Below, in pieces: positions 1,522-11,007 of a stretch of 64,000 nucleotides of DNA. The number at the start of each line of letters is the position of its first letter. Position 1 is the stretch's first letter. This DNA comes from Defluviicoccus sp. (lineage in GTDB: Bacteria > Pseudomonadota > Alphaproteobacteria > MPNO01): contig JAJDVM010000217.1 of NCBI GenBank assembly GCA_022826125.1, positions 313-64,312 on the forward strand, in the 5' to 3' direction. The translations under genes were made by a program, and so were the position numbers. The notes below the pieces were generated by a model that was not told the DNA's origin, ran no database searches, and worked only from the letters and a program-made list of their open reading frames with translations.

Positions 1522-1946
1522 TCGAAGAACAGTTTGCCGAGCGATCCGCGCCGGAGTTCCAGCGTGGAAATGCTCATTTCGTCCAACGTGATCGAGCATC
1601 GGAGTTGATTGTGATCCCAGCCGAGGATGACTTCGCCAATCGGCTGTTCGGAGTAGAGCGCGCGGCCCCCACCGTTCCGATAGTGGAGCGACACGGAAAC
1701 CGACGATTCGCCGCTCGGCTTGAACGACACGAAAGCATCGGCCTCGGTCGCCCCTTTGAGTCGCCGGAACACGCGGAGGAACGCGGCCTCATCCTCGGAC
1801 GAAAGGGAGAACGACTTGTCCGGCTCAAACTGCTTATTGGCCTCGATCACGTCCCGACAGATTTCGGCGCGGAGCTTGCGAAGGAAGCCGGACGGCGTGC
1901 ACTCGGCACGGACCCGAACCCAGTTGTCCTCGGCCGCGCCCGTCAT
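1518..1946 (-). CDS. hypothetical passenger protein (142 aa)
   Basis: ATGA overlaps at both ends (transposase and MTase-HNH); protein-like composition; no family recognised. Confidence 0.7.
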   Translation of the reverse strand: MTGAAEDNWVRVRAECTPSGFLRKLRAEICRDVIEANKQFEPDKSFSLSSEDEAAFLRVFRRLKGATEADAFVSFKPSGESSVSVSLHYRNGGGRALYSEQPIGEVILGWDHNQLRCSITLDEMSISTLELRRGSLGKLFFE

Positions 1947-2938
1947 GACCGGGCTCCGCTCGACAGGCCGTTGTCGGCGATCAGTTCCCGATACCGCAGC
2001 CGCTTGCCCTGCATCCCCGAGACGATCCCGGCCATTTGGTCGACGGTATCGGCTTCGCGGTCATTGTGCCGTCCGGCGAATTCCGTGACATAGCGATCGA
2101 GGTGCTTGGGGCTGAACTTGTGATAGATGCCATGCTGCCCGCGCTTGAACATCGACCACAGTGCCTCAATCCCGTTGGTATGGGCATCGCCGCGGACGTA
2201 TTCGGAAGCCGAGTGATTGACTGATTCGTGATCGAACCATGGATCGAGCGCGTTGTAGACGGCGGCATCGTCGGTATACGCCTTCGCGCCGATCCGGGTT
2301 TTCTCCGCGACGAACCCGGCGACGTGCGGCGTGTCCGTCCGGGTGACATGACGGGCCGCGACCTTGTTCGTCGCGCGGTCTTTCACGCCGACCACGGCTT
2401 CCATGTCCACCGCGCCGCGCCCGGTCGCCGCCTTGCGTTCCGCGTTGCTCTTGTTCTTCCGCTTCCCGCCCACGTAAGTCTCGTCTGCCTCGACTGGCCC
2501 GGCGAACGGCCCGGTCTCGGCTTCCATCGCCAGCCGCAGCCGGTGCAGCATGAACCATGCCGCTTTCTGACTGATCCCCAATTCGCGATGCAGCCGCATG
2601 GACGAGACGCCCTTGATATTCGTCGTGAACAGGTAAATCCCGACCGCCCATGCCCGGTATTTCAGGTTCGACCCTTCCATCACCGTGCCGGTCTTGATCG
2701 AGAACATGGTCTTGCTTTTGCCGGTCATGCAGTCGCGGCAGCGGTGCGTCATCGTCCGATGCTTGATCCCGGACTGGACGTTCACCGATCCGCATTTCGG
2801 GCAATGCGGGCCGTCCGGCCAACGCTGCGACGCGATCCAGTCCCGCGCCGTGTCTTCATCGCGGAACATGTCGGCGACCTCCATGAAGGTCAGTCCCTTG
2901 CGATGCGATTTTCCGGGTGCCTTGCGAGCCATCTTCAA
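1943..2938 (-). CDS. IS1595 family transposase (Zn-ribbon + ISXO2-like DDE)
   Basis: CPKC...CRDC zinc ribbon, VEADETYVGG, YTDD, HTNGIEALWS, YVTEF motifs. Confidence 0.95.
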   Translation of the reverse strand: MKMARKAPGKSHRKGLTFMEVADMFRDEDTARDWIASQRWPDGPHCPKCGSVNVQSGIKHRTMTHRCRDCMTGKSKTMFSIKTGTVMEGSNLKYRAWAVGIYLFTTNIKGVSSMRLHRELGISQKAAWFMLHRLRLAMEAETGPFAGPVEADETYVGGKRKNKSNAERKAATGRGAVDMEAVVGVKDRATNKVAARHVTRTDTPHVAGFVAEKTRIGAKAYTDDAAVYNALDPWFDHESVNHSASEYVRGDAHTNGIEALWSMFKRGQHGIYHKFSPKHLDRYVTEFAGRHNDREADTVDQMAGIVSGMQGKRLRYRELIADNGLSSGARS

Positions 2939-3191: not shown

Positions 3192-3431
3192 CTACTTCCG
3201 GAACGGGCTCTCGTCCTTCTTCTGAGCGATCCGCTTCAGCGTCTCGTTGAACCGGCCTTCGTCCTCCTCGCAGTCGAGCTCGCGCGCGACGCTGACTTGG
3301 GTGAGCTTCCGCGCCTTGCGCAGCTCGCGCGGCGCCATCTCCTCGGCGATGAGCTCCGCGGCGCGGTCCTCGATTTTGCGGCGCCTTGCGGGGTTGAGGT
3401 CCGCCATCATGTCCTTCAGGCTCACGGTCAT
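3192..3431 (-). pseudogene. XRE/HigA-like antitoxin N-terminus truncated within the HTH and fused to an unrelated tail
   Basis: RRRKIEDRAAELIAEEM..RELRKARKLTQ..VAREL then switches to DCEEDEGRFNETLKRIA; recognition helix absent. Confidence 0.6.
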
Positions 3432-3504
3432 CGCGACCCTCCTTTCCCGGCGAGCCGGACGAGGTGTCGGTCGAAGCGCTCGTCGGCCTTGCGGATGAGC
3501 GTCC
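3428..3504 (-). pseudogene. C-terminal remnant of a Gp49/RelE-like toxin
   Basis: TLIRKADERFDRHLVRLAGKGGSR* with ATGA overlap into the antitoxin; rest of the toxin missing. Confidence 0.55.
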
Positions 3505-3921
3505 GGTTACAAACACGCTTCGGAATAGACCCGGCTCACGATCTCTGCGTACTGACCAGCGACCCGGAAATCGCAGCGGCCACCCTTGTGCAGCCGGGGG
3601 ACCACACCCGTGTCCATCAGGGTATGTCAGAACTGGACCTCACGACCCGAGTCGCGCAGCCGTTCGACGTCGATCCCCTTGAGGGGAGGGCGGAAGCGAG
3701 CAGGCGTTTGAGGCTGGGGGTCGGGGTTTGTCCGGGAACCAGACATACGTCCCCGCGTGGCGTTCAGGACCGGTCAAGGCTGCGGTGACCCAGCGCACTC
3801 TCACCGCGTATCGGACCCACGCTTCACCTGCGATTTTCCGACGGTATCGTTCAGCCGCTTCTTTACTCCTACTCCACGTCGCCGAAACTCCAGTTTCCGG
3901 CAATTTAGCTCGAACGACCGC

Positions 3922-5010
3922 TCAGAATATACTGGCGGTTCGGTTGTCCGTTTCTCTTCCCGCGTCGGTTTCGGTCCGACGTATGAGAGCAGGCCGCCGC
4001 CTGCCGCCGTCTTCGGGAAGCGGCGCGGACTTGCGCTCGTCGCTGCCGTTCCAGAGCAAGCCGGGATGTGCAACACGGTAATACCCTTCATCTCTCTTCG
4101 ACGTTCTTGGTTTCGGCGGCTCCCTTTCCGTCTCGAACCGTCCCTTCGCGCCTTGGAGGTATTTCTCGACGAGCTCTACGCATATCCACTTGCGGCCGAG
4201 ACGCTCGGCAACCTCGCCGGTGACGCAACTCCCGCCGAAGGGGTCGAAAACCATGTCTTCCGGGTCGGTCAGCATACGGATGAAATACTCAGGCAAGGCG
4301 GCGGGGAAGCGGGCCGGATGTGCCTTGATACCTTTCTCCTTGCAGTAGCGCAGGTAACCGCTGTTGCTCTCCGTATTGGGTATGGCGATCAGGTTCGGAG
4401 GAATGGAGGCCCCGTTATCGATGGCGAACTTCTCGCTGATGTCATGCCCCGACGGCCTTAGCTTCGCCCTGTAGCCATTGCTCAGGAGCGTCTTCATGCT
4501 CTCGCTGTAGGGTTGAAGGACGCGTCGGTTGCTCGCGCGTGGCCACGGCGTTTTGGATAACCACCACACGGTGTTGATTCCGTCCTTCACGCGGATGCGA
4601 CGGATGTTCACCCATTCGGCCGGTGCCGGCAGTTTCGACGGATTCCACCAGTAGAATTCCTGGGCGAGGTGAAAGCCGTATTCCTCGCACAACATGATCA
4701 GGAGCTTAAAGTGATAGAGGCTGCGTTCCGGAAGGCCCGGCTTCCATGCGCCGCCGAGGTCGATCACGAGGCTGCCGTCGTCTTTCAGGATGCGGTGGAA
4801 CTGCTCCGCGAAATCCCTGAACCATTCGAGATAGGCGTCTTCCTGTTCATTCCCATAGTCCTTCTTGCGTGTCAGCGCGAAAGGAGGACTCGTCATGATG
4901 AGGTCGACGGACGCCGTTCCGGTCCGCTCCATCACGTCCAAGCTGTCAGCGTGGTGGATGCACCCGAGAGGGGTTCGGTGATAAACGGTCGGCAGTTGGC
5001 CGTTCGTCAT
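3922..5010 (-). CDS. site-specific DNA methyltransferase, beta class N4-cytosine type (M.PvuII-like)
   Basis: TSPPFAL.RKK.YGN, NPSKLP.P.EWVN, RPSGHDI, HPARFP, DPFGGS motifs as recalled for M.PvuII. Confidence 0.92.
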   Translation of the reverse strand: MTNGQLPTVYHRTPLGCIHHADSLDVMERTGTASVDLIMTSPPFALTRKKDYGNEQEDAYLEWFRDFAEQFHRILKDDGSLVIDLGGAWKPGLPERSLYHFKLLIMLCEEYGFHLAQEFYWWNPSKLPAPAEWVNIRRIRVKDGINTVWWLSKTPWPRASNRRVLQPYSESMKTLLSNGYRAKLRPSGHDISEKFAIDNGASIPPNLIAIPNTESNSGYLRYCKEKGIKAHPARFPAALPEYFIRMLTDPEDMVFDPFGGSCVTGEVAERLGRKWICVELVEKYLQGAKGRFETEREPPKPRTSKRDEGYYRVAHPGLLWNGSDERKSAPLPEDGGRRRPALIRRTETDAGRETDNRTASIF

Positions 5011-5023
5011 TGTCCTGTCTTCC

Positions 5024-6421
5024 CTAGAGTTCGAGCTTCTTGAGTTTCATCGCGTGACGGGCCTCGCGGTCGAAGGCACGCAAAATCGCGGCGGGACGCT
5101 CGCCGATGGATTTCAGGTCGCTCCCATCGAGCATGATCACGGCCAGGTTTGAATCCGCCATGATCCTATTGGCGTAGCGGCGCGCTTCGCTGCCGATCTG
5201 GCCAGTTGTGACGACGACAATGACGTTGCTTTTCAGGACATGCGTCAGCCCCACTTCCTTTGCCACGTCGTCGAGCGAGACGCGGGCGGTATTCTTGCAC
5301 TGCACCTGCCAGCGGGAGAAAACAAGGCGGGCATTCTCGAAAATCAGGTCGACCTCCGCGCCTCCCGTCTGATTCGCCCGCAATCGGGTTGCGATGAAGG
5401 TCATGTCGAGTAGGCGCATGATCTTGAAGGCGAGGGCTTCGAGCGCCAGTCCCGCCTTGTGGCGATCCTTGCTCTTCATTTCTTTCAGGATGGCGGAAAG
5501 CGGCGTGCGCAACAGTGCCAGAAGCTTGGGATCCGTCTGTCCTTTGAGTTGCTCGATGAGGGGATCGACCACATCGGCGACCAGCTTGGACGTCGGGGAA
5601 ACCAGGAAAGGTTTGGCACCGCGACCCGAGGTGGTCTTTGTGGCGGTGATATAGCCGGCGTCTTGCAGAGCGTGGAGCACAAGCTTCGGCAGGCTCTTTT
5701 CGGGGAACCTCACGCCATAGGTCGCTGCGGCGAGCCTGGCAATTTCGTTTGTGGGCTGGGGCTTCGTCGTCCCCGTGTTGGCGAGCGCTCGCAGGAACGC
5801 GCGTTGCTCCGGCGTAAAGTCGGCCAGCACCTCGAACTCGTCAGGACCGAGCCCGAGAATGTCTTCGATTTTGTGAGGATCGACCTGCCAGCGCTTGCCG
5901 ACGAAGACGCCTGCCTTGGCAAGCCAGAGGCGCATCATGCTCGGGTGTTTCCCGCCCGACGGGTAGTGGACGCCGCGTGCGGCGAGCCCCTCGCGCAGCG
6001 TGGTAAGATTGACCCGCTCGCCTGCTGCCGCCATGTCCTGGATGCAGCGCACTAGTGTCATGCCGTGCAGGTTCAGGAGAATGTGCTTTGCAAGCTGGCG
6101 GTAAAGGGTGGCTTCGTCGTCCTTCGAAGCAAGAAGTTCTCGTCCGAAGTCGGTAAGGGCGGCGTCGCGGTCGATGATGCCGTAGGCGATCATCCCCAGC
6201 TTCGTGTTGTTGGCGAGTTTGTTCCGGTTGTAATCGTCGGTCTCGTGTTTCTCGAAAAAACCGGCCCGCACGGCTTGCTCGAAAGCGTGCCAGTCGCCGC
6301 CGTGAGTGTCGGCCAATTCCAAAACCGCCGTAAGCTCGATCTGCGAGGGCGAAAACTCGCTGCCGAAGGGAAGGTCGCTCTTCTTGCTCACTCTTTTCCC
6401 ATCCAACGGTTCGTTCGACAC
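5024..6421 (-). CDS. restriction endonuclease with C-terminal Mrr-like PD-(D/E)XK domain
   Basis: GLALEALA...GGAEVDL...WQVQCKN...IVVVTTG..A..YA...LDG; directly upstream of the MTase; lower GC than backbone; start may be GTG at 6391. Confidence 0.85.
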   Translation of the reverse strand: MSNEPLDGKRVSKKSDLPFGSEFSPSQIELTAVLELADTHGGDWHAFEQAVRAGFFEKHETDDYNRNKLANNTKLGMIAYGIIDRDAALTDFGRELLASKDDEATLYRQLAKHILLNLHGMTLVRCIQDMAAAGERVNLTTLREGLAARGVHYPSGGKHPSMMRLWLAKAGVFVGKRWQVDPHKIEDILGLGPDEFEVLADFTPEQRAFLRALANTGTTKPQPTNEIARLAAATYGVRFPEKSLPKLVLHALQDAGYITATKTTSGRGAKPFLVSPTSKLVADVVDPLIEQLKGQTDPKLLALLRTPLSAILKEMKSKDRHKAGLALEALAFKIMRLLDMTFIATRLRANQTGGAEVDLIFENARLVFSRWQVQCKNTARVSLDDVAKEVGLTHVLKSNVIVVVTTGQIGSEARRYANRIMADSNLAVIMLDGSDLKSIGERPAAILRAFDREARHAMKLKKLEL

Positions 6422-6509
6422 GTGGAGCGTTAGCCTTGGCGTGCCCCGCTACAGGTCCCAAGGCGGCGCTCATCCACCCTATAGCCGGTTCTCACCACAA
6501 CCCGAACGA

Positions 6510-6553
6510 GAACATTTAGGGAACATTCTGCCGCTTTGCGTCTCTACTGTAAA
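6510..6553 (-). promoter_or_regulatory. sigma70-type promoter followed by an alphaproteobacterial LexA (SOS) box
   Basis: Minus strand TTTACA (6553-6548)-N17-CAGAAT (6530-6525), then immediately GTTC-CCTAAAT-GTTC (6524-6510). Confidence 0.7.
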
Positions 6554-6608
6554 CCCTGTTTTCTTCAACCGATTCGCTTGTCTTGCCGGTCACATCGCTA
6601 GCAGGCCT

Positions 6609-8924
6609 CTACGCCTTCCCCGCCCGCTTCAGGATCGCCCGCAGCCGTTCCGGCGTGACCGGCAGGCGGTCGATGGCGCCGGGGATGCCGATGGCGGCGT
6701 CGATGGCGGAGGCGATGGCCGCGCCGACCGCGTTGATCCCGCCTTCGCCGGCGCCCTTCACGCCGAGCCCGTTATAGGGGCTCGGCGCGTCCTCGGTGAG
6801 CAGCAGGTCGATGGGCGGGGTCTCGGCCAGCGTCGGCATCAGATAGTCGGCGAAGGTGACCGAGAGCGGCGCGCCGGTCTCGTCGTAGCGGAACTCCTCA
6901 AGGAGCGCGCCGCCGAGCCCCTGCACGCAGCCGCCGGTGAGCTGGCCGTCGACCAGCATCGGGTTCACCGCGCGGCCGACATCGTAGGCGACCAGGAACC
7001 GCTCGACCTCGACCGCGCCGGTGCCCGGGTCGACGCGGACCTGGGCGATGTGGACGCCGTAGGGGTAGGCCATCAGGTCGGTGCGGTGCCAGCCTTCCGC
7101 CGAGAGGCCGGGATCGCGCCCCGCCAGCAGCGGCGAGCCCGGCGCCAGCCGGCGGGCGATCTCGCCGAGCTCGATCTCCGCGCCGCCCTCGCGGTCGGTC
7201 CGCGCGACCTTTCCGCCGGCGACGTCGAGCGCGTCGGCGGGCGCCTGGAGCAGTTCCGCCGCCGCCTCGACGGCCCTGGCGCGCAGCTTCTCGCTCGCGA
7301 TCCGGACCGCCTCGCCGGTCATCACCGTGGCGCGCGAGGAATGCGCGCCGAAGCCGTAATCGATCAGGTCGGTGCGGCCGTGGACGACGCGGACCCGGCG
7401 GTAATCGACCCCGAGCGTCTCGGCGCAGATCTGGGCCATGACGGTCTCGAACCCCTGGCCGAGCGAGGCGCCGCCGGTCAGCAGCTCGACCGCGCCCGTC
7501 GTGTCGACCCGGATACGCACCCCATCGGCCGGGCCGGGGCCGCTCTTCTCGACGAACAGCGCGAGCCCGGCGCCGGCCAGCTCGCCGTTCGCGCGGCGAG
7601 TCGACATTCCGGCCTGCATGTCGTCCCAGCCGGCGCGCGCCAGCGCCTTGTCGAGCAGCCTCGCGTAGTCGCCCGAATCGTAGACCACCTCGTGGTCGAT
7701 CGTGTCGATGCCGCCCGCGAACGGCATTTCGTCCGACGCGATCAGATTGCGGCGCCTTATGTCGACCGGGTCGGCATTCAGATATGCCGCCACGGCATCG
7801 AGCAGGCGTTCGCGGACGAATGTCGCCTCGTAGCGCCCGGGCGAGCGGTAGGTCGCGGCCGGCGTCTTGTTGGTCAGCCGCACATGGCCGCGCGACCGGT
7901 AGGCCGGGAACCGGTAGGGGCCCGGCATCATGCCGGCCGTCATGTCGGGCACGCGCACCCCGTGGGTGCGGATATAGGCGCCCTGGTCGTGCAGGAAAAT
8001 GTCGTCGACACCGCGCACGATGCCGTCGGCATCCACCGCCGCGCGGATCCGGTGGGTCTGCTCGCGCGAATGGTTGGTCGCCTGCAAATGCTCCCAGCGA
8101 TCCTCGATCCACTTGACCGGCCGGGCGAGGCGGAGCGCGGCGGCGCAGACCAGATATTCCTCCGGGTACAGCTCGCCGCGCACGCCGAACCCGCCGCCGA
8201 TCTGCCCCTCGTAGAACTGGACAGAGGAGGGCGGGCGGCCGAGCGCCGCCGCCATCTGGTCGCGGTTGAAATGCGGCCGCTTGGTCGCGCCGTGGAGCTC
8301 CAGCACGTCGCGCCCGGCATCGTGGACCGCCACCGCGCCCCTGGTCTCCATCGGCACCGCGGAGTGGCGTCCGACCGAGACCTCGATCCTGACCGTCGCG
8401 TGGGCGGCCTCGAACGCCGCCTCGACGTCGCCGCGCGCCTTCTCCAGCACATGCGCCTCGGTCGAGCGCTCGGCGTCGAACGGTCCCGGCTCGTCCTCCG
8501 CCGAGAGGATCGGCGGCAGGTCGCGATAGGACGCCGCGACCAGCTCGGCCGCGTCCTCCGCGCGGTACGGGCTGTCGGCGAACACCGCCGCGACCGGCTC
8601 GCCGACATAGCGCACCTTGCCGCGCGCGAGGATGTGCTGCCGGTAGGGCTCCAGCCCCTTCACCCGGGTCGCGCGGAACGCGATCGGGCCGATATCGGCG
8701 ACGTCTTCGGCGGTCCATACCGCGGCGACGCCCGGCGCCGCGCGGGCCTCGTCGGCGTCGACGGAGAGCAGTTCGGCGTGCGCGCGGTCCGAGCGCACGA
8801 TGCGCATGTGGAGCTGGCGCGGAAAGGATATGTCGCCGACGAACCGGCCCGCGCCGCCGATCAGCGGCGGGTCTTCGAGACGCGCGACGCGCTTGCCGAT
8901 CCACGCCTCGCGGCGCGCCGTCAT
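6609..8924 (-). CDS. xanthine dehydrogenase/CoxL family molybdopterin-binding subunit
   Basis: R.EDP.LI.G.G.FVGDI, IGGGFG, TYRSPGR loop, GQG.ET..AQ, GVKGAGEGG; ATGA overlap with 2Fe-2S subunit. Confidence 0.92.
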   Translation of the reverse strand: MTARREAWIGKRVARLEDPPLIGGAGRFVGDISFPRQLHMRIVRSDRAHAELLSVDADEARAAPGVAAVWTAEDVADIGPIAFRATRVKGLEPYRQHILARGKVRYVGEPVAAVFADSPYRAEDAAELVAASYRDLPPILSAEDEPGPFDAERSTEAHVLEKARGDVEAAFEAAHATVRIEVSVGRHSAVPMETRGAVAVHDAGRDVLELHGATKRPHFNRDQMAAALGRPPSSVQFYEGQIGGGFGVRGELYPEEYLVCAAALRLARPVKWIEDRWEHLQATNHSREQTHRIRAAVDADGIVRGVDDIFLHDQGAYIRTHGVRVPDMTAGMMPGPYRFPAYRSRGHVRLTNKTPAATYRSPGRYEATFVRERLLDAVAAYLNADPVDIRRRNLIASDEMPFAGGIDTIDHEVVYDSGDYARLLDKALARAGWDDMQAGMSTRRANGELAGAGLALFVEKSGPGPADGVRIRVDTTGAVELLTGGASLGQGFETVMAQICAETLGVDYRRVRVVHGRTDLIDYGFGAHSSRATVMTGEAVRIASEKLRARAVEAAAELLQAPADALDVAGGKVARTDREGGAEIELGEIARRLAPGSPLLAGRDPGLSAEGWHRTDLMAYPYGVHIAQVRVDPGTGAVEVERFLVAYDVGRAVNPMLVDGQLTGGCVQGLGGALLEEFRYDETGAPLSVTFADYLMPTLAETPPIDLLLTEDAPSPYNGLGVKGAGEGGINAVGAAIASAIDAAIGIPGAIDRLPVTPERLRAILKRAGKA

Positions 8925-9406: not shown

Positions 9407-10260
9407 CGGGCGGCGTCCGCCAGCGCGCGCTCGACCATGACGGCGGCGATCTCGCTCCGGTAGCCCGCGCTCGCGTGGGAATCCGCCATCGCGTCCACGG
9501 CTTCCGAAACGGCCGCGCCGGCCTCGCGGAACAGGTCCGGGCCCGGCGCGCGGCCGGCCAGCACCGCCTCGCCCTCCGGGATCCGGCGCGGACGGGCCTC
9601 GACCCCGCCGAGCCCCACCCTCGGCTCGACGATCGCCCCGTCCTCGACCCGGTAGAGGACGAGCGCCATCGCCAGCGCGAAATCGCCGGCGCGGCGGGCG
9701 AACTCGCAAAACCCCCAGCGTGTGTCCGGCGCGGGGCGGGGGAGCTCGGCGCGGACCAGCAGCTCGTCTTCGGCGAGCGCGGTCGTCATCGCCCATTCGA
9801 AGAAATCGGCCGCCGCGATCTCCCGCTCGCCGCGCACGCTCCGCGCTGTCAGCCTTGCGTCCAGCGTCGCCGCGGCGAGGCACCACTCCGATGCCGGGTC
9901 GGCATGCGCGAGGCTGCCGCAGAACGTGCCCCGCATGCGGATCGGGTAGTGCCCGATATGACGGACCATGGCGGCCAGAAGCGCGCCGAGCGGCCCGTCC
10001 TCGACCGGGCGGTGGAAGTCGCAATGCCTGGCGAGCGCGCCGATCGACATCGAGTCGGCATTTGCCGCGATCCCCTCGAGGCCGGAAATGCCGTTTATGT
10101 CGACCAGGTGCGCGGGACGCGCGAGCCGGAACGCCATCGTCGGCACCAGGCTCTGCCCGCCCGCCAGAATCCGCGCGTCCTCGCCGGCATGGGCGGCAAG
10201 GAGCGCCGCCGCCTCGTCGACCGTCCCCGGCAAATGATGGGTGAACGGCGCCGGCTTCAT
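9403..10260 (-). CDS. FAD-binding subunit (CoxM-like)
   Basis: MKPAPF, LAGGQSLVP, IR.RGT.CGSLAHADPASE, RRAGDFA. Confidence 0.93.
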   Translation of the reverse strand: MKPAPFTHHLPGTVDEAAALLAAHAGEDARILAGGQSLVPTMAFRLARPAHLVDINGISGLEGIAANADSMSIGALARHCDFHRPVEDGPLGALLAAMVRHIGHYPIRMRGTFCGSLAHADPASEWCLAAATLDARLTARSVRGEREIAAADFFEWAMTTALAEDELLVRAELPRPAPDTRWGFCEFARRAGDFALAMALVLYRVEDGAIVEPRVGLGGVEARPRRIPEGEAVLAGRAPGPDLFREAGAAVSEAVDAMADSHASAGYRSEIAAVMVERALADAAR

Positions 10261-10350
10261 CGGGGTCTCGGCATGTCGGACGTCGCCGCGATCGGCTGCA
10301 TGTCCGGAACACTTATAGAAGCGTATGCATCCTGCCTAGAGCGGAGCCCC
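10203..10350. repeat. 148-bp direct repeat copy 1 (coxM-like upstream region + first codons)
   Basis: Aligns ungapped with 10860-11007 at offset 657 with a few substitutions. Confidence 0.92.
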
Positions 10351-10450
10351 GGCGGCCGGTACTGAGCAACCGGATAAAAGGGTAGCACTACGGACCGATT
10401 GGATGGGTAACAGTGTTCCGGGTTCGTTCGGCTTCCGCCGGTCCAACGGA

Positions 10451-10690: not shown

Positions 10691-10917
10691 TGCTCGCCCT
10701 CCACGACGAAAGTGAGCGAAAGTCCACCTTCGGGTCTTCTGATGAGGAAGGTGTTTCCCTTCCCGATGATGTCCATGCCGATCAGGATGTCGTTCCCACC
10801 CAGTTGCCCATCGTCTTCCAACCCGGCGATCTCGGTGAAGTAAAGCGTAGGACCGTCCGGCGCCGTCGCCTCGTCGACCGTCCCCGGCAAATGATGGGTA
10901 AACGGGGCCAGCTTCAT
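10669..10917 (-). pseudogene. chimera: duplicated CoxM-like N-terminus fused to C-terminal fragment of a retropepsin-like aspartyl protease
   Basis: MKLAPFTHHLPGTVDEA (repeat copy) then DILIGMDIIGKG; no DTG catalytic motif. Confidence 0.6.
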
Positions 10918-11007
10918 CGGGGTCTCGGCATGTCGGGCGTCGCCGCGATCGGCTGCATGCCCCGAACACTTATAGAAGCGTATGCATCCTGCCTAGAGCG
11001 GAGCCCC
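10860..11007. repeat. 148-bp direct repeat copy 2
   Basis: Near-identical to 10203-10350. Confidence 0.92.

Follow-up and report, generated by a model that had tools for sequence, protein, structure and literature searches.

Control of Type II restriction-modification (R-M) systems is usually described as self-contained, exercised by controller (C) proteins, by autoregulation of the methylase or by antisense RNA. Operons in which LexA represses both a nuclease and its antidote are familiar from the DNase colicin/immunity systems, and in Corynebacterium, where the SOS box is palindromic, the cglIM-cglIR(-cglIIR) genes of Corynebacterium glutamicum were reportedly placed in the LexA regulon by Jochmann et al. 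in 2009. Here we analyzed a 64,000-nt stretch of the genome of an alphaproteobacterium, Defluviicoccus sp. (assembly GCA_022826125.1, contig JAJDVM010000217.1, positions 313 to 64,312; hereafter the window), in which a restriction endonuclease gene and a DNA methyltransferase gene lie behind a predicted promoter adjoined by a LexA-type box. In our judgement the locus is probably a LexA-repressed, SOS-inducible Type II R-M operon, so that R-M defence would probably be turned up by the SOS response.

The pair resembles C-controlled R-M systems of the PvuII type in being a two-enzyme module whose endonuclease expression needs transcriptional restraint, and in having a methylase close to M.PvuII. 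It differs in that its island carries no C or other small regulator gene and has a host LexA box in the operator position; its endonuclease (455 aa, Mrr_cat domain, FokI-like modular fold) is unrelated to R.PvuII, and the small gene found in relatives of this cassette encodes a ribbon-helix-helix (RHH; CopG-type) protein, whereas the PvuII-type C protein is of the helix-turn-helix (HTH) class. Colicin operons and SOS-regulated toxin-antitoxin modules likewise place a damaging protein and its neutralizer under a promoter-overlapping LexA operator; their protection comes from a binding protein or antisense RNA rather than from methylation, and their operators are palindromic gammaproteobacterial ones. 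The toxin-antitoxin modules named as SOS-regulated in PMC3874152 include symE, tisB, yafNO and dinJ-yafQ. In C. glutamicum, ciprofloxacin raised cglIM (M-value 3.41) and cglIR (1.38), as listed in Table 1 of PMC5055667; the likeness to the present pair is that R-M genes are tied to DNA damage, there in a Gram-positive host and with a 5-methylcytosine methylase. BapE of Caulobacter is also an alphaproteobacterial SOS-induced DNA endonuclease. In the passages that treat it (PMC12700426, PMC12907096) it is induced late in SOS and described as promoting damage-induced cell death, and most of the induced genes listed alongside it have a LexA box; compared by description only, it lacks a partner methylase, unlike the endonuclease studied here. 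Finally, a structure model of our endonuclease (mean predicted local distance difference test score 84.7) had its best fold matches in the Type IIS enzymes FokI and Nt.BspD6I, which, like it, have helical recognition domains ahead of a PD-(D/E)XK cleavage domain at the C-terminus. The likeness is weak (E 1e-4 to 1e-3, template modelling score ~0.2, identity 9-13%), and the single M.PvuII-like methylase suggests a symmetric target site rather than a IIS site.

In the open literature (subscription journals and supplements lay outside the scope) we found no published LexA-controlled Type II R-M system beyond the C. glutamicum lead. The available portions of one review (PMC12707154) contain no occurrence of "LexA", and those of another (PMC3874152) name LexA for toxin-antitoxin genes only. 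What is unusual at this locus is its regulation, not the R-M pair, and one precedent has been reported, Corynebacterium cglIM-cglIR.

The minus strand from 6553 to 6510 reads TTTACA (6553-6548), a 17-nt spacer, CAGAAT (6530-6525) and then GTTCCCTAAATGTTC at 6524-6510, exactly as an earlier sequence-only reading of this DNA had claimed. The repeat, GTTC-CCTAAAT-GTTC, is a perfect direct-repeat core of the alphaproteobacterial LexA operator type. A consensus scan of 3600-6800 on both strands returned one sigma70-like site, the predicted promoter TTTACA-N17-CAGAAT at 6525-6553 on the minus strand (9/12 matches; shuffle mean 0.6), which is aimed at the endonuclease gene. The first base of the box is the base after its -10 hexamer, and this placement agrees with the assertion that the box covers the predicted transcription start. 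Contigs at about 94-98% identity (X2 record 2, X3 record 13 and X4 record 15) span the promoter region.

Between the box and the likely endonuclease start lies a 5' leader of about 118 nt (6392-6509, minus strand). In the 450 nt upstream of the endonuclease there was no match to an RHH profile, even at E<=10, and the leader held no RHH remnant; the leader also had no match in Rfam and no significant fold (z = -0.30), and the small open reading frames (ORFs) of the island had no match in Pfam. The statement that no C gene is visible is correct; many relatives of the cassette do have an RHH gene, which this copy lacks.

The box has counterparts elsewhere in the host. The LexA consensus of Caulobacter is given as GTTCN7GTTC in PMC12700426, which agrees with the sequence-only assignment of this motif to alphaproteobacterial LexA, and one host box with an A+T-rich spacer is identical in every base to the Caulobacter box given there. 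Like Caulobacter, the host has GcrA. The host lexA gene (contig C364) has GAACTTTACTAGAAC within its promoter (29.2 bits), and perfect cores with A+T-rich spacers precede genes for a PA0069-type radical SAM protein, SRAP (tandem boxes), imuA, a GIY-YIG protein and a DUF5131 protein; recA has imperfect boxes only, two of them, at 25.1 and 20.8 bits. When scored on a 23-nt profile built from nine host SOS-type sites, from which the R-M box and two mraZ sites were excluded, the R-M box reached 28.9 bits, a score comparable with that of lexA and above those of recA. It ranked 9 genome-wide and was the sole site of at least 18 bits on its contig. A check against the host's own motif had been proposed with the original suggestion, and its outcome supports that suggestion, the same motif being present at lexA, imuA, SRAP, radical SAM and GIY-YIG genes and, imperfectly, at recA.

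The bare core does not discriminate: perfect 8-base cores number 151 in the 5.87-Mb genome, which is roughly the chance level. The window holds 8 against 1.79 expected, and the other seven have 5-7 G+C in the spacer. On the full profile, exact tail probabilities give 1e-5 to 1.4e-3 expected sites of at least 28.9 bits per 64 kb (genome to uniform composition), or 7.8e-3 at 40% G+C. Per genome, the corresponding expectation does not exceed 0.12 at uniform composition or 0.71 at 40% G+C; for the 213-bp upstream region it is 4e-7 to 3e-5.

GTTC-N7-GTTC sites also stand upstream of two mraZ-mraW loci on contigs C43 (~13569; 31.6 bits) and C76 (~220; 27.1 bits). At the C76 site a third GAAC unit, an imperfect one (GAGAC), follows at 11-nt spacing, and both repeats may be MraZ rather than LexA sites. 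The presence of two mraZ copies fits the estimated contamination of the assembly, about 8%.

The promoter-box layout of the window has a second case in this genome. On contig C70, at ~6385-6450 (L097 2386-2450), TTGACG-N18-TAGAAC is followed at once by GTTCCCGATGTGTTC, a perfect GTTC-N7-GTTC (23.8 bits, rank 14), 17 nt ahead of the ATG at which an unrelated methylase gene (Eco57I-like, N6, 551 aa) starts. Four relatives of this methylase were found among 400 alphaproteobacterial genomes, each with a 62-68-aa ORF upstream, weakly RHH-like in one of the four, and none with a proximal box.

The endonuclease gene (5024-6391, minus strand) encodes 455 aa; the N-terminal part is helical/winged-helix, and the C-terminal part holds an Mrr_cat domain of the PD-(D/E)XK type (residues 316-427, 40.4 bits). 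Read from the first in-frame GTG, the ORF spans 5024-6421; since relatives are 454-455 aa long and begin with M-(S/K)-KKSDLPFG, aligned with the GTG at 6391, the latter is the likely start. The distance of about 90 bp quoted earlier between box and gene fits the GTG at 6421 and does not fit the likely start, which lies 118 nt from the box. Across 27 aligned sequences D348, Q364 and K366 are invariant, indicating an intact PD-(D/E)XK-type core, and we take the D...QxK arrangement to be the Mrr-type variant of the catalytic motif. The PADLOC, NCBIfam and PDB sequence libraries contained no match to the endonuclease. Its family is large, unusually conserved and spread over many phyla: 2509 proteins matched at E<=0.001 among 8000 candidates scored, and the best 120 were 76-94% identical.

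The methyltransferase gene (3922-5010, minus strand; 362 aa) begins 13 nt past the endonuclease stop, in the same direction. Its product is M.PvuII-like and of the N4-cytosine class (N6_N4_Mtase 138.5 bits; PADLOC MTase_II, E 8.6e-122; M.PvuII, PDB 1boo, E 1.2e-107). Of 80 related loci, 76 have a methylase homologue next to the endonuclease and on its strand, downstream in 71 and upstream in 5, and one of the other four stops at a contig edge; the endonuclease is therefore predicted to belong to an R-M pair rather than to be a solitary (Type IV-like) Mrr protein. The sequence-only reading had offered the locus as a candidate for a new system, and that part of it fell: by homology the pair is an ordinary Type II-style one with a close M.PvuII homologue as its methylase, and its endonuclease family is uncharacterized.

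The two genes, the promoter and the box are the sole contents of a 2.9-kb island of lower G+C (3721-6603), delimited by comparison with the flanks of 11 same-genus genomes. G+C is ~0.58-0.64 over 3501-6500 and 0.68-0.76 in the flank from 6501. Homology to all 11 congeners starts at 6604-6609, the stop of a molybdenum-hydroxylase gene; six of them also match window ~3275-3720, in five cases 0.4-0.9 kb from the hydroxylase gene. The R-M pair is absent from all 11, and among 77 other genomes of the order one contains a fragment only. The DNA that follows the hydroxylase gene (6604; loci L181-L191) is different in each of the 11 congeners, which marks the site as an insertion hot spot. Judged by these comparisons, the R-M pair is a small, horizontally acquired cassette, for which we found no terminal repeats.

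Promoter and box lie 80-95 nt inside the island edge, and the 1.5 kb past the shared hydroxylase gene contains no site above 12.4 bits on the LexA profile in any of the 11 congeners, so neither belongs to the conserved native DNA of the site. Two possible origins of the box were rejected on such grounds. The same 11 congeners rule out a box left over from an SOS gene native to this position, and a copy of a dispersed SOS promoter module is ruled out by a BLAST search of 6392-6620 against the genome, which returned only the region itself. The same query against the fetched loci gave one 20-nt match, to an SOS-type box on contig C194 that agrees with the surroundings of the R-M box at 19 of 20 positions.

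Beyond the left island edge, at a distance of about 0.8-1 kb, is an IS1595-family transposase gene (window 1943-2938; DDE_Tnp_IS1595 plus zinc ribbon), and part of the left flank (~3609-3720) recurs elsewhere in the genome, on contig C113.

Relatives of the cassette were surveyed at 80 of 164 genome loci and 80 of 290 metagenome loci. A profile of the small CopG-type gene (~65-85 aa; RHH_1 above the Pfam cut-off in 3/3 tested) showed that 35 of the 80 genome loci (L004-L083) and 16 of 70 metagenome loci (L098-L177) have an RHH gene, or what is left of one, immediately ahead of the endonuclease gene. The CopG-type gene appears to be an RHH equivalent of C proteins of the HTH class; the available portions of one review mention RHH regulators for toxin-antitoxin systems only. 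By eye, an RHH gene is also present on a Roseivivax plasmid. The Roseivivax marinus plasmid of locus L192 (18.8 kb) has the R-M pair next to parA and repA, with an HNH endonuclease gene (5465-6484) after the methylase gene. Two betaproteobacterial loci, L023 (-1348..-32) and L048 (-1289..-3), have ahead of the endonuclease an ORF of 428-438 aa whose first residues (MARPK...) resemble the start of the RHH protein; a fusion or an extension of the regulator may account for it.

Perfect cores were counted from -400 to +20 of the endonuclease start, with the window itself excluded. Loci assigned to Alphaproteobacteria by record title had a box in 6 of 28 cases (7 sites in 11,715 bp scanned), against none of 46 loci from other phyla and classes (0 sites in 19,025 bp) and none of 6 loci without an assigned class (0 sites in 2,520 bp); control DNA from the same loci, coding and far upstream, held 10 sites in 351,268 bp. 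An independent sample of 400 alphaproteobacterial genomes added three loci, two with a box and no RHH gene and one with an RHH gene and no box. The combined set of Alphaproteobacteria comprises 31 loci, of which 8 are boxed, with 9 sites versus 0.37 expected (Poisson 6e-9), a figure inflated by kinship because L009 and L044 are congeners. A scan of homologous operons for a conserved box had been suggested as a check; boxes are enriched in the alphaproteobacterial loci (8/31, 0/46 others) without being general there.

Loci of ten boxed relatives were examined for promoter-like sites. Three have one beside the box and aimed at the operon, with sequences unrelated to the window promoter: at L015 TTGCCT-N17-TATAAT overlies the box, at L193 TTGAGA-N16-TATAAT surrounds it, and at L194 the box lies 11 nt ahead of TTGACT-N16-TACAGT. 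At L035 and L115 the box stands 7-8 nt ahead of a TTGAC that precedes an RHH gene. The contexts of these boxes are not homologous to the window; the box is kept between L009 and L044 where the upstream surroundings have diverged, and by eye the same is true of L035 and L115. In all five hosts whose lexA was checked (L193, L015, L009, L194 and L035), GAAC-N7-GAAC directly follows a TTGAC at that gene. The metagenome loci carry no taxonomy and were excluded from the enrichment count; 70 of the 80 were scanned, ten being dropped for a partial match or missing upstream DNA, and the best site was that of L115, at 22.2 bits.

The exact box had 0 matches in viral contigs, where the endonuclease family is rare (10 loci). 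Nine of these loci were scanned, L202 being excluded because it has no upstream DNA, and one (L198) has a box, beside a divergent ORF. Regular-expression searches of other SOS-box forms over -300 to +3 of the relatives, which were not thorough, found GAAC-N4-GTTC at 0 of 80 loci and 10 matches to CTG-N10-CAG in 9 loci, none of them fully CTGT-N8-ACAG. At L015 a second perfect box, GTTC-ATATAAT-GTTC (3425-3445), lies 400 nt further upstream with a 61-aa minus-strand ORF (3498-3683) between the two boxes, so that region may include a separate small SOS gene.

Several observations count against LexA control of this operon. The seeds of the profile were hand-picked from A+T-rich perfect cores, two of which (C194 and C285) precede genes annotated without a function, and the estimated contamination of the assembly is 8.2%. 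The promoter matches consensus at 9 of 12 positions and its -10 hexamer is weak. The promoter/terminator scan found no terminator-like site between the upstream gene and the operon, so LexA may govern only part of its transcription. The benefit of induction is not obvious, because endonuclease and methylase would rise together. Among the relatives, 23 of 31 alphaproteobacterial loci have no perfect box, and the closest named ones (83-84% identical; L004, L005, L008 and L192) have an RHH gene and no box, which makes LexA control scattered over lineages rather than a family trait. Individual boxes are also doubtful: that of L050 sits in the RHH gene (9.2 bits) and the second of L009 scores 6.3 bits, both probably chance, that of L034 lies beyond the cassette homology (L033 does not have it) and beside a divergent ORF, and at L015 there is the second box, with a small ORF on the minus strand close by. 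Lastly, boxes are not significantly associated with lack of an RHH gene (5/10 versus 3/21, Fisher p = 0.074; p = 0.15 with two Rhizomicrobium loci merged). The idea that the box substitutes for the RHH gene across relatives was dropped, having yielded a trend only (p = 0.074).

Three other accounts of the box were weighed against repression by LexA. It might be a hitch-hiker or relic, a genuine LexA-type site recombined in from the SOS promoter of another gene or mobile element, with no selected role in R-M and perhaps little effect on expression. The hypervariable insertion site, with different DNA in each of the 11 congeners, lends itself to such an event, as does the 19/20 agreement with the SOS-type promoter box of C194; the boxes of L034 and L198 abut divergent ORFs, the two boxes of L015 surround a small ORF, and most relatives do without a box. 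We nevertheless regard this account as unlikely, since the box is set 80-95 nt within DNA specific to the island, faces the operon in operator position on the sole promoter-like site, and belongs to a promoter region that is single-copy in the genome; moreover, repeated accidents would hardly place boxes, in unrelated promoter contexts, at 8 of the 31 alphaproteobacterial loci and at none of the 46 others.

A binder other than LexA, either an MraZ-like factor that recognizes spaced direct repeats or a protein encoded by a cassette, appears considerably less probable again. That two of the genome's top-scoring sites precede mraZ, one with units extending to a third copy, means that sites of this shape need not all be LexA's; yet the R-M box shares the flank preferences of the lexA, imuA, SRAP and radical SAM sites. 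A cassette-encoded binder would have to explain why boxes occur only in hosts with the same motif at lexA (five checked) and at none of the 46 non-alphaproteobacterial loci. Least credible of all, and very nearly dismissed, is a chance match in an AT-richer intergenic stretch. The bare core does occur at chance frequency, and the seven other cores in the window show no sign of function; against this stand the expectation of 4e-7 to 3e-5 sites of such a score in the upstream region, that of no more than 0.71 per genome even at 40% G+C, and the recurrence of the box in relatives.

From the preferred reading, repression by the host LexA, which the sequence analysis supports well, a mechanism can be outlined. 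The endonuclease and methylase would be made from one transcript of a mobile operon. In the unstressed cell LexA would sit on the direct repeat at the transcription start and hold expression low, and leaky initiation, perhaps with read-through from the upstream gene, would supply enough basal methylase to protect the chromosome. DNA damage, or another source of single-stranded DNA, would activate RecA and prompt LexA to cleave itself, so that the promoter would open and both enzymes would increase. Restriction capacity would then be greatest while prophages are induced and foreign or newly synthesized DNA is abundant, and the host repressor would have taken the role that a small cassette-encoded RHH protein has in many relatives. 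We infer binding, repression, induction and benefit at this operon from its arrangement and its host's motif. As the purpose of induction we favour a boost to restriction during prophage or foreign-DNA activity; damage-triggered self-killing, or protective methylation of DNA synthesized in repair, seems less likely to us. The label of SOS-triggered defence or abortive infection, put forward with the sequence-only reading, is only a guess.

If a widespread mobile R-M family has indeed come repeatedly under the SOS repressor of its hosts, and only where the host motif matches, then the strength of restriction would vary with DNA damage, and the selfish modules would be fitting their regulation to each host. 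The finding would also add one more to the defence systems coupled to signals of DNA damage, whose number is growing. A bolder and rather doubtful extension is that alphaproteobacterial R-M cassettes repeatedly lose the RHH gene and capture a host LexA operator, which would make restriction a true SOS function. A surge of endonuclease set off by damage or by phage-activated RecA might then sharpen defence against induced prophages, or might outrun methylation of fresh DNA and kill the damaged cell, as BapE does.

Two further repeats lie elsewhere in the window. A 76-nt element at 10362-10438 has copies, 80-92% identical, on at least 8 other contigs and includes one GC-rich GTTC-N7-GTTC core; it is not a tRNA according to ARAGORN and has no match in Rfam. 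A 148-nt direct repeat (10203-10350 and 10860-11007, 95% identical) flanks a low-G+C stretch of ~0.5 kb with small minus-strand ORFs. A small insertion that duplicated its target or flank may account for this arrangement.

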